Shown here: piece after piece, positions 5,420-61,563 of the stretch | Position numbering within the stretch: the stretch's first letter is position 1 | How the letters are laid out: every line of letters starts with the position of its first letter | NCBI GenBank assembly: GCA_025363315.1 | Contig: JANYED010000167.1 | Location: 8,348-72,347 of the forward strand | Length of the DNA stretch: 64,000 nucleotides | Direction: 5' to 3' | DNA from: Polaromonas sp. | GTDB taxonomy: Bacteria > Pseudomonadota > Gammaproteobacteria > Burkholderiales > Burkholderiaceae_C | The notes under the pieces: model-generated | Database searches by the model: none | Told to the model about the DNA's origin: nothing | The model's input: the letters and a program-made list of their open reading frames with translations, nothing else | Translations under genes and position numbers: made by a program

Positions 5420-5437
5420 GCTGTCCTGATAGCAGGC

Positions 5438-15663: not shown

Positions 15664-15717
15664 GTTTAAGCCGCTAGACCAATAGATACGGGCGCAAGCA
15701 GCTCATTAATTCATAGC
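15664..15717 (-). repeat. 54-bp motif, copy 4; supplies the stop of the hxlR-like gene
   Basis: Reverse complement: gctat gaattaa tgagc tgct tgcgc ccg tatctat tggtct agcggcttaaac. Confidence 0.9.
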
Positions 15718-16134: not shown

Positions 16135-16269
16135 GTGATTTGACACTCTCTTTTAAGTATGTATGCCACTTATTTGCGCCTACTTTTTTTTGGTTAGTGA
16201 AAGTTTTAACATCGCGTTCTTCGTTGATTCTTCATTGACATTCATCCATTTATCTTGAGGAAACCCATC

Positions 16270-22857: not shown

Positions 22858-22864
22858 TGTGTCT

Positions 22865-25800: not shown

Positions 25801-25927
25801 GCGCAGACCGCTTGGTTTGGCCATTTTTGGGGGGCTTGTGGTCAGTCAGGTGCTGACCCTATTCACGACGCCGGTTATTTATTTGGGGTTTGATCGGTTG
25901 GGGCGTAAATTGGGTCGTAAAGGCTAG
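22865..25927 (+). CDS. mdtB: RND efflux permease (MdtB/MuxB-like)
   Basis: Start MNPSSPFILRPVATSLLM; GFVVDDAIVMIENI, GIVKKNAIMMIDFA, RFRPILMTT. Confidence 0.93.
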   Translation: MNPSSPFILRPVATSLLMLAVVLAGLLGLKFLPLSALPQVDYPTIQVQTLYPGASPEVMAQTVSSPLERQFGQMPGLQRMSTTSAAGVSIITLQFGLGLALDIAEQQVQAAINAGASLLPADLPAPPVYAKINPADAPVLTLAVTSDTLPLTEVQNLVNTRLALKISQVNGVGLVTLSGGQRPAVRIQADVRALASYGLGMDTFRTAITAANANAAKGSIDGPSRAYSINSNDQLVTAQDYKNLIIAYRNGAAVRVSDVAQVVNGAENVKLGAWSNLTPAIILNVQRQPGANVIATVDAIKARLPELQSGLPGSLRVDVLSDRTTGIRASVMHVQIELLLAVLLVVLVIFAFLHSLRATIIASLAVPISLIGTCGAMYMLGYSLNNLSLMALTIATGFVVDDAIVMIENISRYIEEGLAPVEAAIKGAAQIGFTIISLTVSLIAVLIPLLFMGDVVGRLFREFAVTLAITILISAVVSLTLVPMMSARWLKKGPAKTNDSKLQQFFSNVIKRYDRGLTWVFKRQALTLLVAFATLVVTGLLYIVIPKGLFPTQDTGQLQARVQAVQSISYARMAELQQAAAKAILEDPDVENLSSFVGVDAANNTMLHTGRMLINLKKVRTTGQLATMQRLQDRVSKVAGVTLYLQPTQDLTIDAEAGPTQFRVAMEGSDNKVVVLWAKKLAARMAELSSLRHVTTDAGATGASVFVTVDRDTASRLGIATSTIDDALYSAFGQRIVSTIFTETNQYRVILEALPNQLTNAAMLGSLQIKTASGAAAPLDSIATITERPAPLQVTNVDQFPATTLGFDLGPGVALGKAVDDIKRAARDIALPASVSLTFLGASGAYEASLSSQLWLILAALVCVYIVLGVLYESYIHPLTILSTLPSAGVGALLALIVTGNDLGVIGIIGIILLIGIVKKNAIMMIDFAIDAERTQGKSAQDAIHQAALLRFRPILMTTLAALFAAVPLMLGWGEGAELRRPLGLAIFGGLVVSQVLTLFTTPVIYLGFDRLGRKLGRKG

Positions 25928-37300: not shown

Positions 37301-40292
37301 TTTCACACAGCAGCAGCCCGCGTGCATCGCTTTTGCCGCTGCACACACTGCCTAAATCCTTGATTTCAGTCTTGTTGTCGTAGGTGTAAAAGCCGCCCAC
37401 CATGCGCTTGCGGCTGGTGGTGACAATACGCGCCACGGCCTGCACTGTCAGTGCAATATCTGTAGCAGCGAGCCCCTTTAAATCAAGTGCTAGCGCCTGA
37501 AACTTGATTTTCTGGCTGCTCGACACCCAGCCCTCCGTTTTGATGCCCGCCACTACGCCTGAAGGCCACAACGTGCTCAAGCTTCGAATCGTTTGCACCT
37601 CGCCATTCGGGTCGGCATAGGTGGCTTCCAGCAGCAGCTCTTGCGGTTGTTTGGCAGTAGGTACATCAGAAATGGTGACTTTACCTGCACCGTTTTTGTT
37701 CAGCGTTAACGGCAACTTGTCAGCTATAACGCGCTGGTCTTGTGATGCCGTGGTTTCCTCTTCGCCTTGTGCATTGCCGGTTTGCTTGCCGCGCGGCGGG
37801 CTAAAGCTGAACTCTTCGTAGTCGCTATAGCTTAAATACTTGCCGCGCACCAGGGCTGACACACGCACGGGCAAGTTCACCGCGCCGCCGCCCGCTACAT
37901 AGTTGATTTGCACGTCGGCGGGTACGGACTTGACATTGACCAGCGCCTTTTTGTTGGTGGGCGTAACGCGCCCTTCAAGCACCGGCAAGCGAAACTCTTC
38001 CACTCTGAATTGGCCCGTGCTGATGTTGCCGTTGCTGCTATCGCTATCGCTGTCGCTGTCGTTATTTTTTTGCCTGTCGAGGTAGACCTGATAGATGCCA
38101 AGTTTGGCAGCGGGCGGTATGGCAAATGTGTTCTCGGCGCTTTGGCCACCCGTTGCGGTTTTGCGCCAATTGAGGGCTTGTTTGTACTGCTGTCCGCTAC
38201 CCACGTGGGTGACGATCAGCGTTTCGGGTAACACGCTGGCCAGGCCAAAACCTTTGCTGGTCTCGGTGCGCAAAATATGCTTCATCGACACGGTTTCGCC
38301 CGCTTTGAACAGCGTGCGGTCAAAAATGGTGTGGGCACGTTCGTCGGGCACGGGTTCGCGGCTGGTCGGCACGTTAAAACGCCACGGCTCGATGCCTTTG
38401 TGCCAATTGCTCCAGGTGAAGGCCAAATCATCTGCAGCCCGAGCGCTTATGAAATAAGCGCCATTGGTTTCTGACTCGCCGTCTGAATCACTGCCTGAAC
38501 TATTTCTGTAGCACTGCCCGGGGTCGGGCGACAAGCCGGTGAAGTTGGCAATACCTTGCGCGTTGGTAGTGGCCTTGGCAAGCTGCTTGCCGTTGCAGTC
38601 AGACACCGCCACTTGGGCGTTGGCAACCACCGTACCTTTGTCCAATGTGGTCACCCAGGCCATTGCGTTTTCTCGCCCCAGCTTGAAGTGCACCGCGAGG
38701 TTGGTGACCAGTGCGGATGTACGAACGTACATTGTCCTGGACGCGCCGTAGCGCTCGTCGAGCAACGAGCCTCCTAGTTTTTGCGACGCAATTTCCACCA
38801 CGTGAAAGCCAGGTGAAAGTGGAATACCCACCACCTCAAATGGACGTGGATCCGCGGCGACGGGTTTGGGTAAATCTAAGGTGGTAACTCCCGGCTGACT
38901 TTGCAACAGCGAGACGGTGCGCGATTGAACAGTGTCTTTGTCTCGCTTTTCGAGTACCTTCGGCAATACGCCTTTGACATCACGAATGGCCATGCGGCGC
39001 GGCACTTCATAGCTGTCGTAGCGCTGCACTTTGCGAAACCACGCAATGATTTCTGCATCCGTCTTGGGTTGTAGCCCGTTGACTTTTCCTGGGGTCAGGC
39101 CCTTGATCGGCAAGGCCGCTTCAACGTTGCGCAGCGTCACGGGCAGCAGCGCCATGTAACCAGGCTCGCCGTTATTTTCCGCGTACCGCTCCACAATGCC
39201 AAACGGTGCGGCCGCAAATTTTGCCAGCGGCGGCATCGCGCCGGTGGCTACCCTCAAAGGAAAGCTGTCAGCATTGTTCAGCGGCCGGCCTGATGCGTCT
39301 TTGAAGTCTTTGGGCAGCTCCAGCACATAGGGCGTGGATTCACTGAACAGCGGCTTGAAGGTGATGCTGTTCACCACGTCCGCTGCATCGCCTTCATTTT
39401 CAAACGTCGGCTTAAGCTTGTCTTTGCCGCCCGTCAAACGAATCGCCTCGGCCAGCTTGCGCGGCACCGGTGCGTTGAAGTTCAGGCTCATCGGCCGGAT
39501 GGGCAGACAGGCCGACTGGGCGTTTTCACGCTCGCAGTTGAAGCTGGCAGCAAACGGCTCGCGCACCTTGAAGTTGTAGCGCTTTTCAATGCTGTTGGGT
39601 ATACCGCTTGGCGTGCTGACACCTTTGCCGTAGACCAGTTGCATTTTGCTGGCGGGCGTGAGGCGGCGATTGCAGGTGAGGGCGGCAAACTTCAATGGCT
39701 CGGCGGCTGCGGCTTTGTCCAGCCCCTGCGACTTTAAAAGCGCATCACGCTCTTTGCCCTCAATCAGCTTGACGGGCACTCGCTCGCCCAGGCCCTCAAC
39801 GCTGCACCACACATTGTCTTGAATGCTTTTGAGCGTCGCCGCGCCATTGAGCTGAAGTAAAAAATACTGTTCTTCATCAATCCGCTCGCCACCAGAGGGT
39901 TGCAGGCTTTGAATAAACGGCCCGCTAGTATTGAATTTATAGCTACTTGCGCCCGTCAACAGGGCGCCAGAGGGCGATTTAAGCCCAGCACGCATCTGCA
40001 CATTGCAGTTCACACCCGGCGGTAAGTCGTTTTCAAACTCGAACGCCCATTCGCGGTCGCTGATCCAGCGGCCACTGCCTTTGCTGGCTTGTGCATCGCT
40101 GCAACTTAGCGTCAAAGGCGCAGGCGCTTTGGGGTCGCCAAAATTGACGGCGCTGTCGTCAAACTTGGCCACCACCTGGCGTATGCGCGCCACCTCGCCT
40201 TGCGGACTGAGGCTGGTGATTTGCAGCGCCTGCGTGGGAAGTGCTGCGGCCGCCATACCGGCGGCGATGAGTCTCAAAGTGATGGATAGCAA
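34308..40292 (-). CDS. Bacterial alpha-2-macroglobulin (YfhM-like)
   Basis: About 1990 aa; thioester motif YPFACLEQ; paired with pbpC. GAGGAG RBS 6 nt before TTG at 40292 suggests this start rather than 40340. Confidence 0.92.
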   Translation of the reverse strand: MLSITLRLIAAGMAAAALPTQALQITSLSPQGEVARIRQVVAKFDDSAVNFGDPKAPAPLTLSCSDAQASKGSGRWISDREWAFEFENDLPPGVNCNVQMRAGLKSPSGALLTGASSYKFNTSGPFIQSLQPSGGERIDEEQYFLLQLNGAATLKSIQDNVWCSVEGLGERVPVKLIEGKERDALLKSQGLDKAAAAEPLKFAALTCNRRLTPASKMQLVYGKGVSTPSGIPNSIEKRYNFKVREPFAASFNCERENAQSACLPIRPMSLNFNAPVPRKLAEAIRLTGGKDKLKPTFENEGDAADVVNSITFKPLFSESTPYVLELPKDFKDASGRPLNNADSFPLRVATGAMPPLAKFAAAPFGIVERYAENNGEPGYMALLPVTLRNVEAALPIKGLTPGKVNGLQPKTDAEIIAWFRKVQRYDSYEVPRRMAIRDVKGVLPKVLEKRDKDTVQSRTVSLLQSQPGVTTLDLPKPVAADPRPFEVVGIPLSPGFHVVEIASQKLGGSLLDERYGASRTMYVRTSALVTNLAVHFKLGRENAMAWVTTLDKGTVVANAQVAVSDCNGKQLAKATTNAQGIANFTGLSPDPGQCYRNSSGSDSDGESETNGAYFISARAADDLAFTWSNWHKGIEPWRFNVPTSREPVPDERAHTIFDRTLFKAGETVSMKHILRTETSKGFGLASVLPETLIVTHVGSGQQYKQALNWRKTATGGQSAENTFAIPPAAKLGIYQVYLDRQKNNDSDSDSDSSNGNISTGQFRVEEFRLPVLEGRVTPTNKKALVNVKSVPADVQINYVAGGGAVNLPVRVSALVRGKYLSYSDYEEFSFSPPRGKQTGNAQGEEETTASQDQRVIADKLPLTLNKNGAGKVTISDVPTAKQPQELLLEATYADPNGEVQTIRSLSTLWPSGVVAGIKTEGWVSSSQKIKFQALALDLKGLAATDIALTVQAVARIVTTSRKRMVGGFYTYDNKTEIKDLGSVCSGKSDARGLLLCETKLGEAGEVELIVTAKDKDGNTIQAASSVYVTKQGELWFGGENHDRMDVLPEKKSYQPGDVAKFQVRMPFRFATALVAVEREGIIDTQVVQLNGQDPTISLKIKEGWGPNVYVSVLALRGRLREVPWYSFFTWGFKAPKEWWTSFWYEGREYVAPTALVDLSKPAFRLGLAEIRVGTKAHQLDVSVKPDKESYAVRSQAKVTIQVKLPSGQPAANAEVALAAVDQALLELMPNSSWGLLDAMLQRRAWGVETSTAQMEIIGRRHYGRKAVAAGGGGGRSNTRELLDTLLLWNPRVQLDANGQAVVTVPLNDALTTFKIVAVADAATGLFGTGQTSIKATQDLQIISGLPPLVREDDQFRAQITLRNTTKAAMKVEVAPRATLLELKPQTVDIPAGEAREVAWTVTAPGQLGFTRQEAILWEIEAKDTISGVRDGLKARQRIIPAVPLTVQQATLIQVDGSFSLDVNPPADALPGRGGLKMSLQPKLADGMDGVRDWFANYPFACLEQKTSKSVGLRDGKLWQSVVGQIPGYLDSDGLANYFPPRDGDAARGSDALTAYLLAATHEAASINPAFALPDDVRAPMERGLIAFVEGRIQREFWSPRKDLDVRKLAALEALARYGKAQGRMLGSITIAPNQWPTNAVIDWLSILKRVSDVPKREERIAEANQVLKSRLSYQGTKLIFSTEKDDYWWWLMVNGDVNTARLMLAVMDDAAWKDDIGRLANGFIGRQQKGAWLTTTANLWGGLALDKFSARFEATPVAGVTKAALTAAAAQVDWAKVDRVKTTDAGGAPNQTTMFGAPASPGNLRNNTMFLTWAKAASAAKDSLNVTHTGTGRPWLTLQSLAAVQLKEPFNAGYQIKKTMDPVEQAVKGIYTRGDVVRITLEVNASADMTWVAITDPIPGGATILGSGLGRDSEIATKGEKKSGSGWPAFEERSFEAFRSYYEYLPKGVVKMQYTMRLNNVGDFALPPSRVEAMYAPEMFGEAPNARVKVGGVK
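39927..39980 (+). repeat. 54-bp motif, copy 9 (antisense inside A2M, KSPSGALLTGASSYKFNT)
   Basis: agtat tgaattt atagc tact tgcgc ccg tcaacag ggcgcc agagggcgattt. Confidence 0.82.
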
Positions 40293-44562: not shown

Positions 44563-44808
44563 ACAGCGATTGGAACAGCTTGCGGCCCTGTGTGGGCTGA
44601 AAACTGATACACCGGCGCTGCAGGGATGGGTCTGAAAGGCTTCGTCCTACAGCTTGTTGAGGGCCGCCATGTTTGAATACATGGGTAAACATTACATGGG
44701 TTGCCGCTTCGCAAATTCTGCTGCCTAAAACATTCAGGACCATCTTGGATCGTGCCGGAAAACGGGGTTACCCGACTCGGCAGCCAGCCCGCCAGTACAG
44801 GAGACTGC

Positions 44809-46050
44809 ATGACACCCGACCCAACTGTTGCCGCTGACGCCATTCCCAGCGTCATTCCCGCCATTGTTCCAAGCCCCGCTCCAGACTCGGTAGCCGCAGC
44901 AGCTGCCAAGGCGCAGTCAGAGCCCGCGCCTGGCGAAAGACAGCCCTTTTTACTGCACATGCCGGTCAGCATACGCAGCGTGTCGCTGGTGGTGCTGGCA
45001 GCGTTTGCCGGGCTGTTTGTGCTGCACTGGGCCAAGGCGGTGTTTATTCCGCTCATGCTGGGCCTCGTTTTCAGCTACGCGCTGTCGCCGCTGGTCAACT
45101 GGATGGAGAACAAGCGCGTGCCGCGCTGGCTGGGTGCTGCGGTCTTGCTGCTAAGCATTCTGGCGGCGGCTGGCAGCACTTCCTATGCCCTGGCTGATGA
45201 AGCCGTCAAGCTGGTGGAATCGCTCCCGGCTGCTGCGCAAAAATTCCGCGAATCGATCAAGTCGCGGCGCGACAGACCAGCCAGCACGCTGGAGACCATG
45301 CAAAAAGCAGCCACACAAATAGAGCAGGCCGCGCAAGACGGCAGCCCGCCCCCAGCCGCCAACAACCGCGGCGCGATACGCGTGGTGGTAGAGCCGTCAC
45401 GCTTTAACATCAAGGACTATCTGTGGACGGGCACCCTCGGCCTGGTCGCGCTGCTGGGTCAGTTCACCGTGGTGGTTTTTTTGACCTATTTCCTGATGGT
45501 GTCGGGCAATACCTTCCGGCGCAAGCTGATCAAACTGGCCGGGCCGTCGCTCAGCAGCAAAAAAATCACGCTGCAGGCCCTGGATGAAATTACTGGGCAA
45601 ATTCAGCGCTACCTGCAGGTACAGCTTTTTACCAGTGCGCTGGTGGGCGTGCTGAGCGGCCTGGCCCTCGGCGCTCTCGGGCTTGAAAACGCGGCGGTGT
45701 GGGGTATTGCTGCCGGAGTGCTGAACCTGGTGCCGTATGTGGGCTCCCTGGTCACGGCCGTTGCTTCAGCGGGGGTGGCGTTTTTACAGTTTGGCTCCTT
45801 GAACATGGCGCTGCTGGTGGGCGGCGTGTCGTTGCTGATCCACACCATCGTGGGCAATCTGCTCACGCCGTGGCTCACCAGCCGCGCCAGCCGCATGAAC
45901 CCGGTGGCCGTGTTTGTCGGCCTGCTGGCCTGGGGCTGGCTGTGGGGCGTGTGGGGTTTGCTGCTCGGCATTCCCATCCTGATGATTGTGAAGGCGGTAT
46001 GCGACCGGGTGGACGACCTCAAACCGGTGGGTGAGTTTTTGGGGTCTTGA
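44809..46050 (+). CDS. AI-2E (PerM) family transporter
   Basis: Probable start MTPDPTV after GGAG; multiple TMs, LNLVPYVG, MNPVAVF, GLLLGIP. Confidence 0.88.
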   Translation: MTPDPTVAADAIPSVIPAIVPSPAPDSVAAAAAKAQSEPAPGERQPFLLHMPVSIRSVSLVVLAAFAGLFVLHWAKAVFIPLMLGLVFSYALSPLVNWMENKRVPRWLGAAVLLLSILAAAGSTSYALADEAVKLVESLPAAAQKFRESIKSRRDRPASTLETMQKAATQIEQAAQDGSPPPAANNRGAIRVVVEPSRFNIKDYLWTGTLGLVALLGQFTVVVFLTYFLMVSGNTFRRKLIKLAGPSLSSKKITLQALDEITGQIQRYLQVQLFTSALVGVLSGLALGALGLENAAVWGIAAGVLNLVPYVGSLVTAVASAGVAFLQFGSLNMALLVGGVSLLIHTIVGNLLTPWLTSRASRMNPVAVFVGLLAWGWLWGVWGLLLGIPILMIVKAVCDRVDDLKPVGEFLGS

Positions 46051-46334: not shown

Positions 46335-46459
46335 CACGACGCTGTTTTAGGCTTCAAAGCGTGTCGGGCTAGCCTTGCAGGCGCTTGGCGCTGCAGCAAC
46401 TGCCCCAAAGTGAACGAGACCCAATCACGCTGAACTGACGGCAGCGCTTTGATGAACTT

Positions 46460-46513
46460 GATATGAATTCAATAGCAGCACGCGCTGCTATCCATTGGCT
46501 CACAGCATTATGT
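46460..46513 (+). repeat. 54-bp motif, copy 12 (degenerate, intergenic)
   Basis: gatat gaattca atagc agca cgcgc tgc tatccat tggctc acagcattatgt. Confidence 0.7.
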
Positions 46514-46527
46514 TTATAGGCAGAACG

Positions 46528-47811
46528 TCAGCATAACTGCTGCGAAATCACGGTTTTTTCTATCAGCCGGTCATCGCCGAGCGTGATGAGTGCAAAGAGC
46601 AGCTCATCGAGGTTGTTTGCGCGGGCGGCTTTGCGGGCCAGCAGGGGTGTGGCCTGCGGGTTGACGATGACAAAGTCAGCCTCGCAGCCCGGTTGCAGGT
46701 TGCCGACCACGCCCGCCAAGCCCATGGCCTGGGCGGCACCTGCCGTGTGTTGCCACCACAGCTGCTGCGGCTTAATCGACAGGCCGGGTTTGGTGGCCCC
46801 TTCCCGGCCCACGTAATACGCGGCCAACATGGTGTGAAACGGGCTGAACGACGTGCCGCCGCCCACGTCGCTGGCCAGGCCGTAAGAAAAACCCGCCTGG
46901 TCGGCCGCGCGATAGTCAAAATAGCCGCTGCCCAAAAAGAGGTTGCTGGTCGGGCTGACCGCGGCAGCTGTGCCCGTGCTTCGCATCAAGGCGCGGTCGT
47001 CATCGTCAATATGAATGCAGTGGGCGTACACGGCTTTGGGCCGCAGCAGACCAAATTGTTCGTACACGCTGAGGTAGCTGCGAGCCTTCGGGTACAGGCG
47101 TTTGACCCAGGCGATTTCATCCTTGTTCTCCGCCACGTGGGACTGAATCCACACGTCTGGATACTTGGCTGCCAGCACGCCCGCGCCCTGCAATTGCGCC
47201 GCGCTGCTGGTCGGTACAAAGCGTGGGGTGATCGCATAACCCAGCCGGTCAATGCCGTGCCATTTGTTGATCAGGGCTTCAGTATCGACGAGACTCTGCT
47301 TTGTTTCATCACGCAGGCCGTCGGGGGCGTTTTGGTCCATCAGTACCTTGCCAGCCACCATGCGCAAACTTTGCTTTCGCGCCTCGCCCAGCAGTGCGTC
47401 AACAGATTGTCGGTGTGATGTGGCAAAAGTGAGCGCGGTTGTCACGCCATTGCGAAGCAGTTCTGCTATGAAGAACGTAGCTGCTTGCGCACAGTATTCG
47501 GGCGCTGCAAAGCGCTTTTCTTCTGGAAAGGTGTGGTTCTTCAGCCACGGCAGCAAGCCGTCAGCGGGCAAGCCCATCACGTCTGTCTGCGGGAAGTGGA
47601 TGTGCATGTCTACAAAACCAGGGGCGATGATGCGGCCGGGCAGGTGTTCAACCGGCAAGTCGGGGTAGCTCGAACGCAAGCTTTGAAAGCTGCCAATGGC
47701 CTGGACGACCTGGCGACCTTGTGTGTTGGGGCCTGCGACGAGCAGCCCGTCTTGTTCAAAAACGGCGTCGCGGCCCTTGAAGTGCAGCAGCGAGGCGCGG
47801 TAGGCTTTCAT
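46528..47811 (-). CDS. guaD: Guanine deaminase
   Basis: PGFVDMHIHFPQ, WLKNHTFPEE, AITPRF, QSHVAEN, AHCIH, SNLFLGSG, ASDVGGGTS. Confidence 0.93.
   Translation of the reverse strand: MKAYRASLLHFKGRDAVFEQDGLLVAGPNTQGRQVVQAIGSFQSLRSSYPDLPVEHLPGRIIAPGFVDMHIHFPQTDVMGLPADGLLPWLKNHTFPEEKRFAAPEYCAQAATFFIAELLRNGVTTALTFATSHRQSVDALLGEARKQSLRMVAGKVLMDQNAPDGLRDETKQSLVDTEALINKWHGIDRLGYAITPRFVPTSSAAQLQGAGVLAAKYPDVWIQSHVAENKDEIAWVKRLYPKARSYLSVYEQFGLLRPKAVYAHCIHIDDDDRALMRSTGTAAAVSPTSNLFLGSGYFDYRAADQAGFSYGLASDVGGGTSFSPFHTMLAAYYVGREGATKPGLSIKPQQLWWQHTAGAAQAMGLAGVVGNLQPGCEADFVIVNPQATPLLARKAARANNLDELLFALITLGDDRLIEKTVISQQLC
47465..47518 (+). repeat. 54-bp motif, copy 13 (antisense inside guaD, KRFAAPEYCAQAATFFIA)
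   Basis: gctat gaagaac gtagc tgct tgcgc aca gtattcg ggcgct gcaaagcgcttt. Confidence 0.82.
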
Positions 47812-47822: not shown

Positions 47823-48197
47823 TCAGTTGGTCAAAGTGCAACTGTCACCCATGCCATCGCGCCACACCCGAACTGCAGCCAGGCCGGGCAAGCTGGGGGC
47901 TAAAGCGCGCCATATGTAGGCACACAGGTTCTCTAGCGTGGCCGTGCCCAGGCCGGGCACGTCGTCCAGCATGCGGTGGTCCAGCTGGGGGCGCAGCAGC
48001 TCAATGGCTGCGCGCACGCGGCCCAGGTCGAGCACCATGCCCGTGGCGGGGTCAGGCTGGCCGCTCAAGGTGACCTCGGCGTTGTAGGTGTGGCCGTGGA
48101 TGCGGCGGCTTGCCTCGGCCTGTGTGTCGGCTCCAGTTTCACGCTTGAGCGTGTGTGCGGCATCGAAATAAAAGCGTTGGCTGATTTGGTACGTCAT
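47823..48197 (-). CDS. queD: 6-carboxy-5,6,7,8-tetrahydropterin synthase
   Basis: FDAAHTL, IHGHTY, LDHRMLD, TLENL motifs; downstream of queE. Confidence 0.88.
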   Translation of the reverse strand: MTYQISQRFYFDAAHTLKRETGADTQAEASRRIHGHTYNAEVTLSGQPDPATGMVLDLGRVRAAIELLRPQLDHRMLDDVPGLGTATLENLCAYIWRALAPSLPGLAAVRVWRDGMGDSCTLTN

Positions 48198-48225: not shown

Positions 48226-48861
48226 TTAGCGAATGCCAGTCAGTTTGTGGGTTTGCAGGCTGAGTCGCCACGCCGGGCGCTGCATGCAAAGTGCAATGCA
48301 ATCGCTGAGATTAGCCGCTTTCAGCACGTTGTCCATCGGCTGCAAATAGCGATGGGTGAATTGGGCGGCTTCAAGCTCTGTCAGATGAAATGCAATTTGC
48401 GGCCACACCACTTTCAGCTCATTGCCATGCCGCTGCACCCACGGCGCACCGGCTTTAGGGCTGACGCAAATCCAGTCGATGCCTGCTGGGGCGGTGATCG
48501 TGCCGTTGGTCTCCACCGCGATTTCAAAACCGCGCGCATGCAGCGCTTCAATCAAAGCCGCATCGACTTGCAGCAATGGCTCACCACCTGTCATCACAAC
48601 GAAACGATGCGCTTTGCCGGCGACAGGCCACTGCGCGGCGATTTGGTCGGCAAGCGCATCCGCATCAGCAAACTTGCCGCCGAGCGTGCCGTCCGTCCCC
48701 ACAAAATCGGTATCGCAAAAATTGCAGATCGCGCTGGCGCGGTCTTGCTCGCGGCCAGACCACAAATTGCAGCCCGCAAAGCGGCAAAACACTGCTGGGC
48801 GACCTGCGTTAGCGCCTTCGCCTTGCAGGGTGTAAAAAATTTCTTTGACTTGATAGCTCAT
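48226..48861 (-). CDS. queE: 7-carboxy-7-deazaguanine synthase (CX14CX2C type)
   Basis: KEIFYTLQGEG, GC-NLWSGREQDRASAI-C-NF-C (CX14CX2C, as in Burkholderia QueE), TGGEP, ETNG, VSPK, SLQTHK. Confidence 0.95.
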   Translation of the reverse strand: MSYQVKEIFYTLQGEGANAGRPAVFCRFAGCNLWSGREQDRASAICNFCDTDFVGTDGTLGGKFADADALADQIAAQWPVAGKAHRFVVMTGGEPLLQVDAALIEALHARGFEIAVETNGTITAPAGIDWICVSPKAGAPWVQRHGNELKVVWPQIAFHLTELEAAQFTHRYLQPMDNVLKAANLSDCIALCMQRPAWRLSLQTHKLTGIR

Positions 48862-48893
48862 AACAAGCTCCATGCCGCAATAGGCAGAGCGGT

Positions 48894-48986: not shown

Positions 48987-50027
48987 TCACGCAAATGTGG
49001 CGAAACAGGCGTCCAGCTGGTCGATGTATCGGCGCTTGGCCGATGCGTCAATGAAGCTGGCTTCAAAACTGTTGCGCGCCAAGGTGTACGCCTGCTGCGC
49101 TTGCAAGCCTGTGGCCACAAACGTTTGTGTGAAGTTGTCATTCATGTAGCCGCCAAAGTAAGCCGGGTCGTCTGAATTGACAGTCACCGCCAAGCCGGTA
49201 TCCAGCAAATGCTTGATGTTATGGCTGGCCAGATCAGGAAACACGCAGAGCTTGAGGTTGGACAGTGGGCACACCGTCAGTGCAATGCGATCTGTCGCCA
49301 AACGCTGCAGCAGCGCGGCGTCTTTGCTGGACTGCACGCCATGGTCAATGCGCTCGACTTTGAGTACATCCAGCGCCGTCCACACATAAGCTGGCGGGCC
49401 TTCTTCACCAGCATGGGCAACGAGGTGAAAGCCCAGCTCCCGGCAACGCGCAAACACACGTGCAAACTTTTCGGGCGGATTGCCGACTTCGCCCGAATCA
49501 AGCCCAATACCGATGATTTTGTCCCTGTACGGCAGCGCTTGCTCCAGCGTTTCAAACGCTTCTTGCTCGCTGAGATGCCGCAAAAAGCACATGATGAGCG
49601 AGCCGTTCACGCCCAGCTCGGCTTGCGCATCCACACACGCACGATGTAGCCCGTTGATGACCACATCCATGCTCACGCCGCGCGCGGTGTGCGTTTGCGG
49701 GTCAAAAAACAGCTCGGCATGAATCACGTTGTCTGCAGCAGCCCTGACAAAGTAAGCGCTCGCCATGTCGTAAAAGTCCTGCTCTTTCAGCAGCACACTG
49801 GCCCCGGCATAATAAATGTCAAGAAAGCTTTGGAGATTGGTGAAGGCGTAGGCTTGACGAAGCTCTGCAACGCTGCTGTAGGGAATGGTGATGTTGTTGC
49901 GCTGGGCCAGTGCGAAGATCAGCTCCGGCTCCAGGGAGCCTTCAATGTGAATATGCAACTCCGCCTTGGGCATGGTCCTCAGCAAGTCAGGCAAGCGGTT
50001 TGCGGCAACGGGTTTGACGTGATTCAT
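48987..50027 (-). CDS. add: Adenosine/adenine deaminase
   Basis: Probable start MNHVKP; PKAELHIHIEGSLEP, AHAGEE, RIDHG, CPLSN, NSDDP. Confidence 0.92.
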   Translation of the reverse strand: MNHVKPVAANRLPDLLRTMPKAELHIHIEGSLEPELIFALAQRNNITIPYSSVAELRQAYAFTNLQSFLDIYYAGASVLLKEQDFYDMASAYFVRAAADNVIHAELFFDPQTHTARGVSMDVVINGLHRACVDAQAELGVNGSLIMCFLRHLSEQEAFETLEQALPYRDKIIGIGLDSGEVGNPPEKFARVFARCRELGFHLVAHAGEEGPPAYVWTALDVLKVERIDHGVQSSKDAALLQRLATDRIALTVCPLSNLKLCVFPDLASHNIKHLLDTGLAVTVNSDDPAYFGGYMNDNFTQTFVATGLQAQQAYTLARNSFEASFIDASAKRRYIDQLDACFATFA

Positions 50028-50044
50028 TTGAACTCCAACAAAGA

Positions 50045-50068
50045 AAAAAGGCCGCAACAAAGCGGCCT
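50045..50068 (-). terminator. Intrinsic terminator after the BMP lipoprotein gene
   Basis: Minus strand AAGGCCGC-TTTGTT-GCGGCCTT followed by TTTT. Confidence 0.75.
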
Positions 50069-50088
50069 TGGCTAGACAAACCGGAATC

Positions 50089-51258
50089 TTACTTCTTGTC
50101 AGCGCCTGGCACTTTACCCTCAACGCCTTTGACGTACGTTTTCAGGCCGCCCAAAAACTTGTCATCGGCAACCGTGTCCTTGGCAATCAACTCTTTACCC
50201 GTGTTATCCATGATCGGGCCTTTCCAGATCATGAACGTGCCGTCTTTCAGGCCCGCTTTGATGTCGTTGATGCGTTTTTTGGTGTCGTCTGGCACGTCGC
50301 TAGCAACAGACACCATGTCAATCGTGCCTTCTTTTACGCCCCACCAGGTGCCCGTGCCGCCAGTCCATTTGCCTTCGAGTGCTTCGCCTACAGACTTCAC
50401 GTAGTACGGGCCCCAGTTGATGATGGCCGAGCCCAAGTGCGCTTTCGGGCCGTAGGCGGTCATGTCCGAGTCCCAGCCAAACGCGCGCTTGCCCATTTTT
50501 TCAGCGGTTTGCAACACGGCCGATGAGTCGGTGTTTTGCATCAGCACATCAGCGCCGCCGTTGATCAGGGCAGTCGCGGCTTCGGTTTCTTTGGGCGGGT
50601 TGAACCACTCGTTGACCCACACCACTTTGGTTTTGATCTTCGGGTTGACCGACTGCGCACCCAGGGTGAAGCTGTTGATGTTGCGGATCACTTCAGGAAT
50701 GGGGATCGAGCCGACCACACCCACCGTACCGGTCTTGCTCATCTTGCCTGCAATCACGCCCGCCATGTACGCGCCTTCATAGGTGCGGCTGTCGAAGGTG
50801 CGCATGTTCTCGGCGGTTTTGTAGCCGGTGGCGTGTTCAAACTTCACCCCTTTGGTGTCAGCGGCGACTTTCAGCATCGGCTCCATGTAGCCAAAGGTGG
50901 TGCCAAAAATGATTTTATTGCCTTGTGCTGCCATGTCGCGCAGCACGCGCTCGGCATCGGCTGACTCGGGCACTTTTTCCACAAAACTGGTGACGACCTT
51001 GTCGCCGTAGGCTTTTTCAACTTCTTTGCGGGCGTTGTCATGGGCAAACGTCCAGCCGCCGTCACCGACAGGGCCGACGTATGCAAAAGCGACTTTCAGG
51101 GGCTCAGCTTTTGGCGCAGGCGCTGACGCGGCAGGTGCAGGTGCTGGCGCTACAGCCACTGGTTTGACGTCTTCTTTTTTCCCACAACCAACCAGGGCCG
51201 CGGCAGCCACCGCCGTCAGGGCCGTCATCGTGAAGTAACGTTTTTGCAGGTTTGTCAT
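50089..51258 (-). CDS. BMP-family ABC transporter substrate-binding lipoprotein (purine/nucleoside)
   Basis: Probable start MTNLQKR; lipobox LVGC; VGPVGDGGWTFAH, FGTTFGYM, PIPEVIRNINSF. Confidence 0.9.
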   Translation of the reverse strand: MTNLQKRYFTMTALTAVAAAALVGCGKKEDVKPVAVAPAPAPAASAPAPKAEPLKVAFAYVGPVGDGGWTFAHDNARKEVEKAYGDKVVTSFVEKVPESADAERVLRDMAAQGNKIIFGTTFGYMEPMLKVAADTKGVKFEHATGYKTAENMRTFDSRTYEGAYMAGVIAGKMSKTGTVGVVGSIPIPEVIRNINSFTLGAQSVNPKIKTKVVWVNEWFNPPKETEAATALINGGADVLMQNTDSSAVLQTAEKMGKRAFGWDSDMTAYGPKAHLGSAIINWGPYYVKSVGEALEGKWTGGTGTWWGVKEGTIDMVSVASDVPDDTKKRINDIKAGLKDGTFMIWKGPIMDNTGKELIAKDTVADDKFLGGLKTYVKGVEGKVPGADKK

Positions 51259-56523: not shown

Positions 56524-56577
56524 TTTTAAGGCTGCAGCACAATATATTCGGGCGCGAGCAGCTATGATTTTCGTAGC
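56524..56577 (-). repeat. 54-bp motif, copy 14; supplies the last codons and stop of the LysR gene
   Basis: Reverse complement: gctac gaaaatc atagc tgct cgcgc ccg aatatat tgtgct gcagccttaaaa; TAG at 56562-56564. Confidence 0.9.
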
Positions 56578-57503
56578 GTTGTGGCGACCGATTTGATGCG
56601 TTCACGCAGCCACTTGGACGCATTCGACGCATGCGTTCGCTCGTGCCACAGCTGGTAGTACATCATGCGCGGAAACTCAATCGGGCTGGGCAAAATACGC
56701 AGTGGCAGCAGTTTGGCAAAGCGCTCGCAGTACTGCCGCCCGGTTGTCATCACCAGCAAGCTGGACGCCACCATCGACGGCATCAGGCCAAAGTGCGGGC
56801 AACGCACTGTAATGTTGCGTTGCAAGCCCAGCGTGGCGAGGTGTTCGTCAATCACGCCTTTTGCGCCCGGGTGGGTGGCGGTCGGCGCAATGTGCTCGGC
56901 CTCCAGCCAGCGCGCCAGGTTTTTCGGGTCCCACTTGCGGCGCACCGCAGGGTGGTCTTTGGCGACCATGCACACCACCTCGTCGCCAAACAGGCGCCCC
57001 ATGTGCAGATCGTCCGGCAGGTCCGCCCAGTTGCCAATCACGATGTCGACCTGACCCTGCGCCAAATGGGTGCGGTAATCAGACTCGGCCGACAGCGACT
57101 GGATGTCTATGTGGCAGCGCGGCGCCTGCGCCTTGATTTGTGCCACCAATTGCGGCAAGAACAAAGGGTCGAGGTAGTCGCTAGCTGCTATTTTGAAGGT
57201 GACTTGCGCGGTGGCCACGTCAAAGCCCTTGGCGTCGCTGAAGAGCATGCCGGCTGACCGCAAAATATGAGCCGAAGGCTCCAGCATGCGCAGCCCGGCG
57301 TCGGTCGGTACCATGCCGCTGCCTGAGCGCACCAGAATCGGGTCGCCCGCCAGCTCGCGCAGGCGCTTAAGCGCAGCGCTGACGGCACTTTGGTACATGC
57401 CCAGGCGCATGGCGGCGCGCGACACACTGCGTTCGGTAAGCACGGTATTCAAGACCTTGATGAGATGAAAATCTATCTTGTCGAAAAGTGCCTGGTCTTT
57501 CAT
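56562..57503 (-). CDS. LysR-family transcriptional regulator
   Basis: N-terminal HTH (ERSVSRAAMRLGMYQSAVSAALKRLRE..GDPILVR), FKIAASDY; divergent from xdhA. Confidence 0.92.
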   Translation of the reverse strand: MKDQALFDKIDFHLIKVLNTVLTERSVSRAAMRLGMYQSAVSAALKRLRELAGDPILVRSGSGMVPTDAGLRMLEPSAHILRSAGMLFSDAKGFDVATAQVTFKIAASDYLDPLFLPQLVAQIKAQAPRCHIDIQSLSAESDYRTHLAQGQVDIVIGNWADLPDDLHMGRLFGDEVVCMVAKDHPAVRRKWDPKNLARWLEAEHIAPTATHPGAKGVIDEHLATLGLQRNITVRCPHFGLMPSMVASSLLVMTTGRQYCERFAKLLPLRILPSPIEFPRMMYYQLWHERTHASNASKWLRERIKSVATTLRKS

Positions 57504-57574
57504 ATGCCTTTGTTCATAGCCTCGATATGGTTTTCAGTATGCAAGTAGCGCGCCTGCTGTCTTACCCTGCCAGA

Positions 57575-59104
57575 ATGTCTAGCATGTCCAGTATGTCATT
57601 ACCCCCGGTTTCTTCTGTCAGCGTGCACTCGGTTCGCTTTTTAAAAGCGGGGCACATGGTGTCTCTGCGCAATGTACCACCCAGCCGCACGCTGCTGGAG
57701 GTGCTGCGCGAAGAGCTGGGCAGTACCGCCACCAAAGAAGGCTGCGGTGAGGGCGACTGCGGTGCCTGTACGGTGGTGTTGGGTGAAAAGGTCGACGGTA
57801 AGCTGATCTTCAAGGCCGTGAACAGCTGCATCCGGCTGGCGCATTCGGTCGACGGCATGGCGGTCTGGACGGCTGAGGACATCGCCTCAGTCGATGGTCA
57901 GCTTCACCCGGCTCAAGAGGCGATGGTGCAGTGCCATGGTTCGCAATGTGGCTTTTGCACGCCCGGCTTTGTGATGAGCATGTTTGCGATGTACCAAAAC
58001 CACGTCTGCAAAGGCCAGACCATCACGCGTGAGCTGGCTCAAACCGAGCTGTCTGGCAACCTGTGCCGCTGCACCGGATACAGGCCGATTCTGGACGCTG
58101 CTCAGCAGATGGCAGCTCTTCCCAAAGCGCTTGTGGATGAGCGCAGCGTGCTACAAAAATTAGAGCTGCTCGCGCCCGAATCTATTGGGCTTGAGGCTGA
58201 TTTGGCAGGTAAAATCGGGTATCAGTCGCCGGTTTCACTGTCTGCGCTGCTGCAAATGCGCTCCCAAAACCCTGGCGCGCAAATTGTGGCGGGCACCACC
58301 GATGTGGGGCTGTGGGTGACCAAGCAGCACCTCCAGTTTGACCAGATCATTGACGTGACGCGGGCAGCCGAGTTGCGGCGGATTGAAGACTATCCGCACC
58401 ATATCGCCATAGGCGCGGCCGTCACGCTGAACGATGCCTATGTCGCGTTGGTAAAAGGCAGGCCGCAGCTGCAGGGCTTTGCAGCGAGGTTTGCGGGCCT
58501 GTCGGTGCGCAATTCGGGCACGCTGGGGGGCAATGTGGCTGGCGGCTCGCCGATTGGCGATTCCATGCCGCTGCTGATTGCGTTGGGCGCCAGCGTGGTG
58601 CTGATGAGCCAAAAGAACGGAAAAACAAGCAGCCGTGAGTTTGCACTGGAGGACTTTTACACCGGCTACAAGCAAAACCAACTGGCCGCCGATGAAGTGC
58701 TGGCCTGGATCAAAGTGCCCAAGCCCACGCCGCATGAGTTCTTGCGCATCTACAAAATCTCCAAACGCTTTGACGACGATATCTCGGCCGTTTGCCTGGG
58801 GCTGAATTTGCAGATCGACAACGGCCACGTGGTGAAAGCGTCCATTGGCATTGGCGGTGTTGCGGCCACGCCGGTACGCGCTATTAAAACAGAAGCTGCT
58901 TGCGCCCGTAAATCATGGTCTAAAGCCACTGTGAACTATGCGATGACTGTCCTCAGGGGTGAGTTTTCACCGATCTCTGACATGCGTGCGTCCAGCGCCT
59001 ACCGCACGCAAGTGTTGGGTAACCTGCTCGAGCGCTTCTGGCATGAAAGCCAGGGCTTGCAGCACATCAACCTGCAGTCCTTCACCCTTGAGGCGGCTGT
59101 ATGA
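57575..59104 (+). CDS. xdhA: Xanthine dehydrogenase small subunit (2Fe-2S/FAD)
   Basis: KEGCGEGDCGACTV, QCGFCTPG, GNLCRCTGY, AGTTDVG, ISKRFDDDIS, SDMRAS; start at 57575, 57584 or 57593. Confidence 0.95.
   Translation: MSSMSSMSLPPVSSVSVHSVRFLKAGHMVSLRNVPPSRTLLEVLREELGSTATKEGCGEGDCGACTVVLGEKVDGKLIFKAVNSCIRLAHSVDGMAVWTAEDIASVDGQLHPAQEAMVQCHGSQCGFCTPGFVMSMFAMYQNHVCKGQTITRELAQTELSGNLCRCTGYRPILDAAQQMAALPKALVDERSVLQKLELLAPESIGLEADLAGKIGYQSPVSLSALLQMRSQNPGAQIVAGTTDVGLWVTKQHLQFDQIIDVTRAAELRRIEDYPHHIAIGAAVTLNDAYVALVKGRPQLQGFAARFAGLSVRNSGTLGGNVAGGSPIGDSMPLLIALGASVVLMSQKNGKTSSREFALEDFYTGYKQNQLAADEVLAWIKVPKPTPHEFLRIYKISKRFDDDISAVCLGLNLQIDNGHVVKASIGIGGVAATPVRAIKTEAACARKSWSKATVNYAMTVLRGEFSPISDMRASSAYRTQVLGNLLERFWHESQGLQHINLQSFTLEAAV
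58150..58203 (+). repeat. 54-bp motif, copy 15 (inside the xdhA Fe-S/FAD linker, LQKLELLAPESIGLEADL)
   Basis: gctac aaaaatt agagc tgct cgcgc ccg aatctat tgggct tgaggctgattt. Confidence 0.92.
58880..58933 (+). repeat. 54-bp motif, copy 16 (inside the xdhA C-terminal domain, AIKTEAACARKSWSKATV)
   Basis: gctat taaaaca gaagc tgct tgcgc ccg taaatca tggtct aaagccactgtg. Confidence 0.9.
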
Positions 59105-61563
59105 GCGCAGCCAGATACAGCCCCATCAGCCCCATCAGCTCCATCAGCCCCATCAGCCCCGATGCAGTGGCGGACCCGGATGTGACGGCGCCAGACGCGC
59201 ATGCGGATGAGACGCCTGCCCACGACAGCACTGTGCGGCTGGCCGAGGCATCAGCTGAGCCTATCGTAAAGGCAGCTGTGACTGCTGCGGGCCAGTCCCG
59301 GTTTCATGAAAGCGCGCGCGCTCAGGTGGCCGGTGCCGCGAGCTACGTTGACGATATTCCTGAAATCAAAGGCACGCTGTATGCCGCGCCAATTCTTTCT
59401 ACCGTTGCCCACGGCAAGCTGCTGGGCGTGGACTGCACAGCGGCGCTGGCGATGCCGGGTGTCGTGGATGTGATCTTGCCTGCTGACATTCCTGGCGAGC
59501 AACTGCTGGCCACCTTTGCCCACGATGAACCGGTGTTTGCGCACCGGGTTGTCGAGCATGTTGGCCAGGTCATTGGCGCGGTGGTGGCTAACAGTGTGAT
59601 GCAAGCCCGACGTGCTGCGCGCGCCGTGGTGTGCCGCATTGAGGCCTTGCCCGCTTTGTTGAATGTGCACGACGCGCTGAAGGCCAAAAGCTTTGTGTTG
59701 CCGCCAGTCACCGTCAAGCGCGGCGATGCCAGCAAGGCTTTGAAGTCAGCGCAGTACACCCTGCACGGTCAGCTGGAAGTCGGCGGACAAGAGCACTTTT
59801 ACCTCGAAGGGCAGGTGGCCTATGCGGTGCCGCAAGAACAAAACCAATGGTTGATTTACGCCAGCACCCAGCACCCGGGCGAGGTGCAGCACTGGGTGGC
59901 GCATGCCCTGGGCATTGAGAACCACCGGGTGGTGGTGGAATGTCGGCGCATGGGTGGCGGCTTTGGCGGCAAAGAAACGCAGGCCGGGCATATGGCGGTG
60001 TGGGCGGCGATTGCGGCGCATAAATTAAAGCGGCCAGTCAAATTGCGGCTTGACAGGGACGACGACTTTTTAATCACCGGCAAGCGCCACCCGTTTGCCT
60101 ACGATTACAGCGTGGGGTTTGACGACACCGGCCGCATCACTGGCCTCCAAATGACAATGCTGGCCAACTGCGGCTTCAGCGCTGACCTGTCGGGCCCGGT
60201 AGCTGACCGCGCTATTTTTCACGTCGACAACGCCTACTTTTTGCAAGACGTGGACATCACCTCTTACCGCCTGAAAACCCATACCCAAAGCCATACCGCG
60301 TTTCGCGGCTTCGGCGGGCCACAGGGCATGATCGTGATTGAAAACATCATGGGTGACATTGCCCGCAAGCTGGGCTTGGACGCGCTGGATGTGCGCAAAC
60401 GCAACCTGTATGGCATCGGCGAGCGGGACGTGACGCATTACCAAATGAAAGTTGAAGACAATATCCTTGGGCCGCTGCTCTCAAAACTGGAGCGGACAGC
60501 GGACTACCGAAAACGCCAAACCACTATTGCCGCCTGGAACAAGCAAAGCCCCGTCATCAAACGCGGGCTGGCCATCACGCCCGTGAAGTTCGGCATCTCT
60601 TTCACGGCCACCTTGTTCAACCAGGCGGGCGCCCTGGTGCATGTGTATCTGGACGGCAGTGTGCAGGTCAACCACGGCGGCACTGAAATGGGGCAGGGCC
60701 TGAACACCAAAGTCTGCCAGATTGTGGCGGACGAGCTGGGCGTGGCGTTTGACTGCGTACTGGCCACGGCCAGCGACACCAGCAAAGTGCCCAACGCATC
60801 AGCCACTGCGGCATCTGCAGGCACCGACCTGAACGCGCGCGCCGCGCAATATGCGGCCAGGCACGTGCGTGACAACCTGGCGCAATTTGTGAGCGGCCTG
60901 GACAACTGCGGCGCGGGCGCAGTACGCTTTGCAGGCGGGCGCGTCAGCACGCCAAACAATGCACGATTGTTTGTTGATGTAGTCAAGCTGGCGTACGCTA
61001 ATCGGGTCCAGTTGTGGTCAGACGGCTTTTACCGAACACCCAAAATCCACTACGACAAAACCACGCTCACCGGCCGGCCGTTTTACTATTTTGCCTATGG
61101 CGCGGCGTGTACCGAGGTGGCCATCGACACGCTGACGGGTGAGTCGCGCGTACTCAAAGTTGATATCCTGCACGACGTGGGCACGTCCATTAACCCGGCC
61201 ATCGACATTGGGCAGATCGAAGGCGGCTTTGTGCAGGGCATGGGCTGGCTGACGACCGAGCAACTGGTGTGGAACGACAAAGGCCTGCTGACAACACACG
61301 CCCCGAGCACCTACAAAATCCCCGCAACGGGCGATATCCCTGCGCATCTCAAAGTTGACCTATGGCCAGAGCCAAACCGGGAAGACAACGTCTACGGCAG
61401 CAAGGCCGTGGGCGAGCCGCCTTTCATGCTGGCCATCAGTGTGTATGAGGCGATGAAAGCGGCGGTTGCGGCGGCGTCCGGTAACCAGGCGCGCATCGCG
61501 TTGAAGGCACCCGCCACGGCTGAAAATGTGCTGAGCAGTTTGTCAGCATCGCACAGCGCTTGA
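59101..61563 (+). CDS. xdhB: Xanthine dehydrogenase molybdopterin-binding subunit
   Basis: GGQEHFYLEG, RRMGGGFGGKE, AFRGFGGPQG, GGTEMGQG, IDIGQIEGG, SKAVGEPP; 4-bp overlap with xdhA. Confidence 0.95.
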   Translation: MSAARYSPISPISSISPISPDAVADPDVTAPDAHADETPAHDSTVRLAEASAEPIVKAAVTAAGQSRFHESARAQVAGAASYVDDIPEIKGTLYAAPILSTVAHGKLLGVDCTAALAMPGVVDVILPADIPGEQLLATFAHDEPVFAHRVVEHVGQVIGAVVANSVMQARRAARAVVCRIEALPALLNVHDALKAKSFVLPPVTVKRGDASKALKSAQYTLHGQLEVGGQEHFYLEGQVAYAVPQEQNQWLIYASTQHPGEVQHWVAHALGIENHRVVVECRRMGGGFGGKETQAGHMAVWAAIAAHKLKRPVKLRLDRDDDFLITGKRHPFAYDYSVGFDDTGRITGLQMTMLANCGFSADLSGPVADRAIFHVDNAYFLQDVDITSYRLKTHTQSHTAFRGFGGPQGMIVIENIMGDIARKLGLDALDVRKRNLYGIGERDVTHYQMKVEDNILGPLLSKLERTADYRKRQTTIAAWNKQSPVIKRGLAITPVKFGISFTATLFNQAGALVHVYLDGSVQVNHGGTEMGQGLNTKVCQIVADELGVAFDCVLATASDTSKVPNASATAASAGTDLNARAAQYAARHVRDNLAQFVSGLDNCGAGAVRFAGGRVSTPNNARLFVDVVKLAYANRVQLWSDGFYRTPKIHYDKTTLTGRPFYYFAYGAACTEVAIDTLTGESRVLKVDILHDVGTSINPAIDIGQIEGGFVQGMGWLTTEQLVWNDKGLLTTHAPSTYKIPATGDIPAHLKVDLWPEPNREDNVYGSKAVGEPPFMLAISVYEAMKAAVAAASGNQARIALKAPATAENVLSSLSASHSA
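59118..59162 (+). repeat. 9-bp tandem repeat (CAGCCCCAT) x5 in the xdhB 5' end
   Basis: cagccccat cagccccat cagctccat cagccccat cagccccga(t), encoding SPISPISSISPISP. Confidence 0.85.

Follow-up and report, generated by a model that had tools for sequence, protein, structure and literature searches.

Dispersed repeats in bacterial genomes are commonly taken to propagate through insertion and to stay within intergenic DNA. In this work we describe a dispersed repeat of Polaromonas, hereafter the GCTAT repeat, in a 64-kb stretch of genomic DNA (the window), together with a match to this repeat that lies antisense within guaD, the gene for guanine deaminase. Several described systems bear on this locus. 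Rickettsia palindromic elements (RPEs) insert into genes and make the host protein longer. HIP1 of cyanobacteria is an 8-nt DNA motif that substitution has imposed on coding sequence while protein function was kept. The DNA uptake sequences (DUS) of Neisseria and the uptake signal sequences (USS) of Pasteurellaceae occur at a density of about 1 per kb, and the USS architecture is a GC-rich core flanked by AT-rich tracts. Inside genes, USS and DUS copies are indel-free, occupy permissive regions of core genes and show high conservation themselves; drive and/or recombination has been put forward as their origin (PMC2397512). Coding palindromes imposed by substitution, again with protein function kept, are described for mitochondrial genes of Nematomorpha (PMC6649704). 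In Polaromonas naphthalenivorans CJ2, the spaced word pair ATAGCT(N)22CAAAAG was reported as a potential novel motif that is 81% intergenic, 14% in genes and 5% overlapping; that report gives the word pair and these percentages only, with no statement on anatomy, orthologues, indels or origin (PMC5217627). Judging from the common ATAGCT word and the organism, the CJ2 motif probably belongs to the same family as the repeat in the window.

We found that 27 nt of guaD match the 5' half of the GCTAT repeat beyond chance expectation, with no change in protein length, and that strong copies of the repeat lie in frame in other genes of the window, several of them without any indel. The reading we favour is that guaD holds the repeat as an old, partial assimilation, produced by the same DNA-level process as the copies in xdhA, the alpha-2-macroglobulin gene (a2m) and the PbpC signal anchor; we regard it as an evenly balanced call.

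The guaD site

The DNA analysed comprises the 64-kb Polaromonas window (57.6% GC) and about 1.7 Mb of related loci. The unit of the repeat is about 50-80 nt long and contains, in this order, GCTAT-N7-ATAGC, AGCTGCTYGCGCCCG, TATTGGGCT, AGGCC and ATTTGA. The unit consists of an AT-rich 5' palindrome GCT(N11)AGC, which in many copies reads GCTAT-N7-ATAGC, of a core rich in GC, of another small hairpin region and of a tail; the 3' module reads TAT.TATTGGKCT..AGGC followed by the ATTTGA tail. Searches used two hidden Markov models (HMMs), one trained on 8 clearly intergenic copies (the 8-copy HMM) and one that also includes intragenic copies (the 13-copy HMM). E-values from such small models are approximate, and the empirical nulls agree with them. 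The features at the guaD site are as follows.

46528..47811, minus strand: guaD, guanine deaminase, 427 aa (NCBIfam NF006679, 585 bits; TIGR02967, 469 bits; E. coli GuaD 6OHB, E=1e-107)
47464..47490, plus strand: half-copy of the repeat with a significant score, made up of the 5' palindrome GCTAT-N7-GTAGC and the core TGCTTGCGC, on the strand opposite to guaD codons A108-A116; nhmmer 17.6 bits
47491..47518, plus strand: rest of the 54 bp, with a weak gapped likeness to the 3' module of the repeat; 8.5/25 identities

The closest guaD homologues come from Polaromonas. On the plus strand, positions 47465-47518 read GCTATGAAGAACGTAGCTGCTTGCGCACAGTATTCGGGCGCTGCAAAGCGCTTT, opposite guaD codons K99-A116 (KRFAAPEYCAQAATFFIA). 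The first-pass annotation had described this stretch as a full 54-bp copy overwriting conserved GuaD codons. The antisense site is there, and its 5' 27 nt are significant; the 3' half is near random. Indeed, the 8-copy HMM aligns 47464-47490 only (27 nt, model positions 3-29), with 17.6 bits and E=1.3e-4 for the window, and the 13-copy HMM gives 16.0 bits (E=4e-4). Because the alignment ends at model position 29 and the 3' half is near random, we treat the site as a half-copy rather than a full 54 bp. Aligned in register, the 5' 29 nt share 19.7 identities with the family, compared with 21.3 between true copies. The 5' palindrome, GCTAT-GAAGAAC-GTAGC, has the spacing of the family and forms four Watson-Crick pairs plus one T/G; the core AGCTGCTTGCGC matches at 12/12 positions and then has ACA in place of CCG, giving 2 mismatches over the 16-mer.

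Given that the best null scores were 6.8 bits in 1.47 Mb of reversed real sequence and 14.4 bits in triplet-shuffled sequence (5 x 1.47 Mb), both below 17.6 bits, the half-match is not driven by composition. Nor is it a by-product of the peptide: it depends on the synonymous choices GCG, CAA, GCA, GCT and ATA (joint P=2.7e-4), three of which are rare codons (GCA 15%, GCT 16% and ATA 7% usage), and it is thus a feature of the DNA. When GuaD was synonymously recoded 150 times, no recoding reached 17.6 bits at the site, the maximum being 13.8. The same null applied to the whole window is contaminated by true intragenic copies (30% of replicates hit 17.6 bits elsewhere), and only the outcome at the guaD site was used.

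We aligned 80 guaD orthologues with an overall identity of 71-86%. The 57-aa stretch around the site has zero gaps in 80/80 of them, none being 18 aa shorter, and the solved structures from E. coli (6OHB), Bradyrhizobium (2OOD) and Clostridium (2I9U) are gap-free across it, with EY and FFI in register. These alignments exclude an 18-codon insertion, as the first-pass annotation had argued from the E. coli peptide (TERRYEDLEYAREMSAFFIKQ), which it gave correctly. For guaD they refute the reading in which a mobile element inserted in frame, in the manner of RPEs or MITEs (miniature inverted-repeat transposable elements), and was trimmed later. The codons concerned are not conserved ones: the segment ranks 396/410 among 18-residue windows and is among the least conserved of the protein.

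The motif-like state is shared well beyond this genome. At least 28 of the 80 orthologues score 10 bits or more at the site, in Polaromonas and in Rhodoferax-labelled genomes, and some score above the guaD site of the window (locus L016 26.1, L003 20.8, L005 20.2, L077 19.6 and L001 19.0 bits). Since the state is common to these orthologues, the motif is not a recent overwrite in this genome. The two codons specific to the window, AAG (majority AAA) and TTC (majority TTT), do not perfect the motif either; orthologues with AAA and TTT score higher. In Curvibacter- and Rhodoferax-type orthologues the site reads GCG GAA GTA GCT ... TTT TTC ATA GCA, from which the 12-nt core is completed by two single substitutions, E to Q (GAA to CAA) and V to A (GTA to GCA).

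We measured synonymous divergence by pairwise comparison of codons for the same amino acid and by rank statistics. Among the 8-12 nearest orthologues, divergence over the 18 guaD codons is 0.28 vs 0.44+-0.065, rank 6-7/410. At the level of DNA identity to the window, 13 of the 22 group-A orthologues rank 1-50/410 at the site, including 6/10 Rhodoferax-like members, whose overall identity is about 71%, and the remaining nine of the 22 rank 88-197. In group-B orthologues (e.g. L021, L022, L038 and L044) the site is among the most divergent stretches, at rank 402-409. This pattern, divergent between the groups and often conserved within group A, suggests either that an added constraint acts on group A or that the site once went through a burst of change.

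The chief alternative to assimilation is chance: substitutions in a variable alanine-rich helix (A-Q-A-A-T-F-F-I-A) would have come to spell the 5' half of the repeat and would then have been inherited. We consider this possible, on the doubtful side. A number of observations weigh against an assimilated copy, and several of them speak for chance. The match spans only half of the repeat element. Over the 3' 25 nt, the site shares 8.5 in-register identities with the family, where family members share 14.0 among themselves and random sequence reaches 6.1+-1.5 (P=0.07), and a gapped, anchored pairwise test of the 3' part gives P=0.03-0.08, near random. The site scores 16.0-17.6 bits vs 30-63 for accepted copies, including intragenic ones held out of training, which reach 30-53 bits with the 8-copy HMM. 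Extrapolated to a genome of ~4.5 Mb, the E-value is about 0.01-0.03, which is not negligible across many screened windows. The backbone ATAGCA...GCT...GCG is present in Curvibacter-/Rhodoferax-type orthologues that score <10 bits, and both single-step states between it and the core, AEAA and AQVA, occur, in different orthologues. The last core-perfecting steps were therefore stepwise rather than one block; this answers for the end of the path the block-or-stepwise question raised by the first-pass annotation, and either conversion or selection may have acted overall. Across all 77 sequences compared, the site shows no drop in synonymous divergence (0.49 vs 0.42), and in the 29 AQAA-type sequences the reduction is mild. 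Near relatives L002 and L013 carry an altered core, so any constraint on it is weak. Finally, the window and the related loci yielded no donor copy, no conversion tract and no binding factor.

Against chance stand the E-value of 1.3e-4 for the window, with no comparable score in 8.8 Mb of reversed or shuffled sequence, and the requirement for five synonymous choices. The lowered synonymous divergence in the near clade also argues against it. So does the company the site keeps: the same 64 kb holds an a2m match of equal strength and strong copies in xdhA and pbpC, and repeat relics inside genes are therefore to be expected in this window. Chance, which the first-pass annotation named as a refutation, stays a live rival of assimilation.

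Repeat copies inside xdhA, a2m and pbpC

Pfam assignments place five strong copies of the GCTAT repeat in frame in real genes: two in xdhA, two in pbpC and one in a2m.

58147..58214, plus strand: xdhA copy 1, in the linker between the Fer2_2 and FAD domains, sense, in frame; 52.8 bits, held out of training
58877..58944, plus strand: xdhA copy 2, in the CO_deh_flav_C domain, sense, in frame, no indel; 38.3 bits, held out of training
39924..39991, plus strand: a2m copy, running antisense to the coding strand of the alpha-2-macroglobulin gene within its N-terminal Ig-like domain, indel-free; 17.2 bits, E=1.7e-4 (8-copy HMM), and 39.9 bits with the 13-copy HMM, which includes this copy
32240..32307, minus strand: pbpC linker copy, sense and in frame, in the segment that joins the transpeptidase domain to the BiPBP_C domain; 45.7 bits, held out of training
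34214..34281, minus strand: PbpC N-terminal signal-anchor copy, encoding IAIYLIASCARICWATASF; 30.4 bits (8-copy HMM)

Three sense copies use one reading frame and yield the peptide AA[C/R]ARxxW[A/S] in unrelated contexts.

The clearest case is xdhA copy 2, which scores 38-45 bits and encodes RAIKTEAACARKSWSKATV. At its position 87/87 orthologues, from genomes and metagenomes, are gap-free, with the W and T-V anchors in register, and R. capsulatus XdhA (1JRO) is gap-free as well, which argues against insertion. The ancestral state, RA[VR].TEAAL.GQPWT.ATV (RAVRTEAALTGQPWTQATV), is common to 78 sequences, with an echo in R. capsulatus. Only a monophyletic 9-member group has the repeat-like state (24-45 bits); there, 6/9 adjacent codons changed by at least 2 nucleotides. 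These results show that xdhA copy 2 arose once, without an indel, in this clade. Its synonymous divergence within the clade is 0.087-0.129 vs 0.38+-0.09, rank 0-1 of about 480 and the lowest in the gene, and the remaining variation falls mainly at positions that vary in the family, in the loop of hairpin 2. We also asked whether this loop tracks the family variant of each genome, as in concerted evolution; the comparison is confounded by genome GC content, and we do not claim it.

At the same position, locus L131 shows no more than the 5' half of the repeat (GCTATCAAAACAGAAGCTGCT, 11 bits), next to the ancestral L-A-G residues, which it retains; this is a parallel to the guaD half-copy. As an intermediate toward xdhA copy 2 it was set aside: a neighbour-joining tree places L131 away from the copy-bearing clade.

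For the stretch around xdhA copy 1, the modal length is 63 aa whether or not the orthologue has a recognisable repeat. In the clade of the window the linker has 4 extra codons that match the family tail (a 67 aa form vs 63 aa). Synonymous divergence at this copy ranks 6-11 of about 480.

The conservation of the xdhA copies bears on a further reading, in which the element has a function of its own, as a protein-binding palindrome or as a structured DNA or RNA signal along the chromosome, and copies are kept by direct selection wherever they are tolerated. The xdhA copies are the synonymously most conserved stretches, consensus positions of the family are conserved while the loop of hairpin 2 is free to vary, intergenic copies hold their position across species (for example after the guaD stop), and the sequence of the 5' palindrome changes among copies yet stays palindromic. 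On the other side, our search yielded no function, binding factor or Rfam family; the guaD half-copy is weakly constrained; and the presence of copies in either orientation to the genes disfavours an RNA-level role. We think direct selection unlikely as the explanation, and it overlaps with the drive or conversion reading discussed below rather than excluding it.

In a2m, the copy is by eye a full-length match to the family. The stretch that holds it is 60 aa long in the window, and the mode is 60-61 in about 140 diverse homologues (identity <=50%); the peptide, GLKSPSGALLTGASSYKFNT, fits the family consensus. A PDB sequence search with the a2m N-terminus gave no match, and a search of representative proteins supplied the homologues instead. 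The signal-anchor copy of PbpC is conserved, without indels in homologues. The peptide of the pbpC linker copy is present in 120/120 Polaromonas homologues retrieved; this copy can therefore be read as an insertion or as a replacement.

A second repeat serves as a control for these alignments. The GC-rich palindromic repeat at 32721-32814 (arms CCCTCACCCCCGCCCACTCCCGTGCACGGGAGTGGG...) is distinct from the GCTAT repeat and is an in-frame insertion in pbpC: its stretch measures 60 aa in the window vs 32 aa in 61/120 homologues. True insertions are thus detectable in our alignments, here as +28 aa. Similar Pro/Gly/Ala-rich inserts were seen in xdhA of L001, L079 and L033.

For the GCTAT repeat itself, in-frame insertion with later trimming can draw on the pbpC linker copy, on the 4 extra codons in the xdhA linker and on the fact that a different, GC-rich repeat inserts in frame in pbpC and in xdhA orthologues. 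With guaD and xdhA copy 2 both free of gaps, we consider its probability for the guaD site negligible. Within folded parts of proteins, copies of this family do originate by replacement, as in xdhA copy 2, a2m and the PbpC signal anchor. The first-pass annotation had proposed replacement within structured regions on the basis of guaD; the proposal survives in these three copies, and not as a recent overwrite of guaD.

The repeat family and its neighbourhood

With the 13-copy HMM the window contains 13 clear copies of the GCTAT repeat at 40-60 bits, a density of ~1 per 5 kb, and 5/13 lie inside open reading frames (ORFs) with Pfam domains. Copies are found in either orientation, and the majority abut or overlap stop codons. 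A search of the window for the 16-nt core (<=3 mismatches) returned 14 matches, every one a family member or the guaD site. Taken over 70 distinct copies, which come from the window and from the related loci, the broad consensus reads tGCTATtaAat.ag.AGCTGCTTGCGCCCGTat.tatTGGgCTagAGGCcgATTTgac...taAaa. Features outside the genes discussed above are the following.

5436..5501, plus strand: intergenic copy, inverted pair with 5551..5612; 60-63 bits
5551..5612, minus strand: intergenic copy, inverted pair with 5436..5501; 46-47 bits
13267..13334, plus strand: intergenic copy; the palindrome (hairpin) loop at 13279-13281 is the TAA stop of ORF 12481..13281; 56 bits
15491-15577, minus strand: tRNA gene (Rfam RF00005, 56 bits), with repeat copy 15653-15720 just upstream
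15653..15720, minus strand: intergenic copy adjoining the tRNA gene; 57-62 bits
17039..17106, minus strand: intergenic copy abutting the stop of ORF 16255..17040; 50-56 bits
25928..25995, minus strand: intergenic copy abutting the stop of ORF 22823..25927; 56-59 bits
46063..46130, plus strand: intergenic copy 3' of ORF 44701..46050; 47-48 bits
46457..46522, plus strand: degenerate copy directly downstream of the guaD stop; 6-9 bits
56513..56580, minus strand: intergenic copy; 56562-56580 overlaps the end of the LysR-type gene 56562..57503; 51-54 bits

Many Polaromonas loci (L001-L060, ~11275-11376) have a repeat copy at the position equivalent to 46457..46522, directly after the guaD stop. A further stretch, 44132-44191, is weakly similar to the repeat along its full length, with gaps (11-12 bits, E about 0.007-0.016), and is probably a degenerate copy.

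Rfam searches (at the gathering threshold over the whole window, and by E-value over 5380-5680) found no family for the repeat and returned the tRNA only. RNAalifold on 12 copies gave no convincing consensus structure (-1 kcal/mol); the AT-rich 5' palindrome was seen by eye only. A literature search with the core sequence returned nothing relevant to the repeat. We noticed no reverse transcriptase/template-repeat pair, as in a diversity-generating retroelement, among the repeats of the window, and no search was aimed at one. The beta-proteobacterial repeat element (BRE), which has ~69% GC and is often tandem (PMC3110155), was rejected as the identity of the GCTAT repeat: compared by description rather than by sequence, its composition is closer to the GC-rich palindrome at 32721-32814.

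The guaD gene lies in a purine-catabolism neighbourhood (46528-62681) together with xdhA (57488..59104), xdhB (59101..61563), an adenosine/adenine deaminase-like ORF (48987..50123) and the LysR-type regulator (56562..57503), the regulator being assigned by Pfam. ORFs 47823..48197 and 48226..48873 resemble queD and queE by sequence motifs only. Among the related loci, L008, L043 and L051 come from records titled Synechococcus sp. or Asaia bogorensis and carry a guaD 75-80% identical to the Polaromonas-type guaD of the window; they are probably mislabelled metagenome bins.

Proposed origin and comparison with known systems

On the reading that we favour, the guaD site would be an inherited partial copy (27 nt, 5' palindrome plus core) of a dispersed repeat of Comamonadaceae whose usual form is an intergenic element of 65-80 nt at gene ends. 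The copy would have been written by nucleotide substitution into existing codons of a poorly constrained GuaD helix, not inserted, and only changes that left a workable GuaD peptide would have survived. The same DNA-level process would have made the indel-free full copies in xdhA, in the alpha-2-macroglobulin gene and in the PbpC signal anchor, and in xdhA it would hold them conserved at synonymous sites. The mechanism may be molecular drive, in which segments already similar to the repeat undergo short-patch ectopic gene conversion with the many intergenic copies as donors, with direct selection on the consensus positions of the element as an alternative or additional driver; selection at the protein level would filter the outcomes. 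In guaD, assimilation would have stopped half-way, in an ancestor common to many Polaromonas and Rhodoferax-labelled genomes. Molecular drive, by patch conversion and/or by selection on consensus positions, is the most likely origin of the copies in genes, and we infer that guaD belongs to the same process as the xdhA copies.

The broader claim is that a long, structured repeat of Comamonadaceae enters coding sequence without indels, by substitution or short-patch conversion, even in folded domains and a signal peptide, and is then held synonymously, with guaD as an arrested or relaxed intermediate; we advance this tentatively, a little short of an even call. What is observed here is a long repeat that sits in genes free of indels, shapes the amino-acid sequence and shows conservation at synonymous sites. 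Should this prove general, a DNA-level force, whether conversion drive or a function not yet known, would be able to rival protein constraint, with a bearing on the homogenisation of repeat families, on conservation at synonymous sites, on local bursts of amino-acid change and on gene annotation in Comamonadaceae. Taken alone, the guaD site is a modest example, and xdhA copy 2 is the testable case.

Like the DUS of Neisseria and the USS of Pasteurellaceae, the GCTAT repeat occurs in both orientations, in intergenic and intragenic positions, without indels, at permissive sites and with conservation. The combination of substitution origin, permissive site and conservation is clear for the xdhA copies; the guaD site is permissive, and its synonymous conservation is confined to the near clade. 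The repeat differs from DUS and USS in its unit, 50-80 nt with two palindromic modules vs a 9-12 nt core, in the lack of a solitary core and in its lower density. These points bear on the possibility that the element is itself a DNA uptake or recombination signal that accumulates by substitution and biased transformation, as USS and DUS do. Its GC-rich core between AT-rich tracts recalls the USS architecture, and its conserved, indel-free copies in permissive parts of core genes match the USS/DUS pattern (PMC2397512). On the other hand, the unit carries about 40-60 bits, far above the USS/DUS cores, and in the window the 16-nt core is never found apart from its flanks. The density of ~1 per 5 kb also falls short of the ~1 per kb of USS and DUS, and a literature search gave no paper on uptake specificity in Comamonadaceae. 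We rate an uptake signal as very improbable.

The GCTAT repeat resembles RPEs and in-frame MITEs in being a dispersed palindromic repeat that is in frame in functional genes and translated. It is unlike RPEs in that guaD, xdhA copy 2, a2m and the PbpC signal anchor keep their protein length; it is the GC-rich repeat at 32721-32814 that behaves like an RPE. With repetitive extragenic palindromic (REP) sequences and bacterial interspersed mosaic elements (BIMEs) it has in common that short, multicopy palindromic repeats lie mostly at gene 3' ends, some as inverted pairs (5436/5551). In contrast to REP, which is extragenic by definition, it is found inside ORFs at the guaD site and in 5/13 window copies, and it is longer, with a conserved non-palindromic core. 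Like HIP1 and the palindromes described for Nematomorpha, it is a DNA motif written into coding sequence with protein function kept; the Nematomorpha repeats, as described there, are local inverted repeats, whereas the GCTAT repeat is a dispersed family. If the broader claim above is correct, the repeat would be a long-motif analogue of USS, DUS or HIP1, rather than a REP or MITE that inserts.

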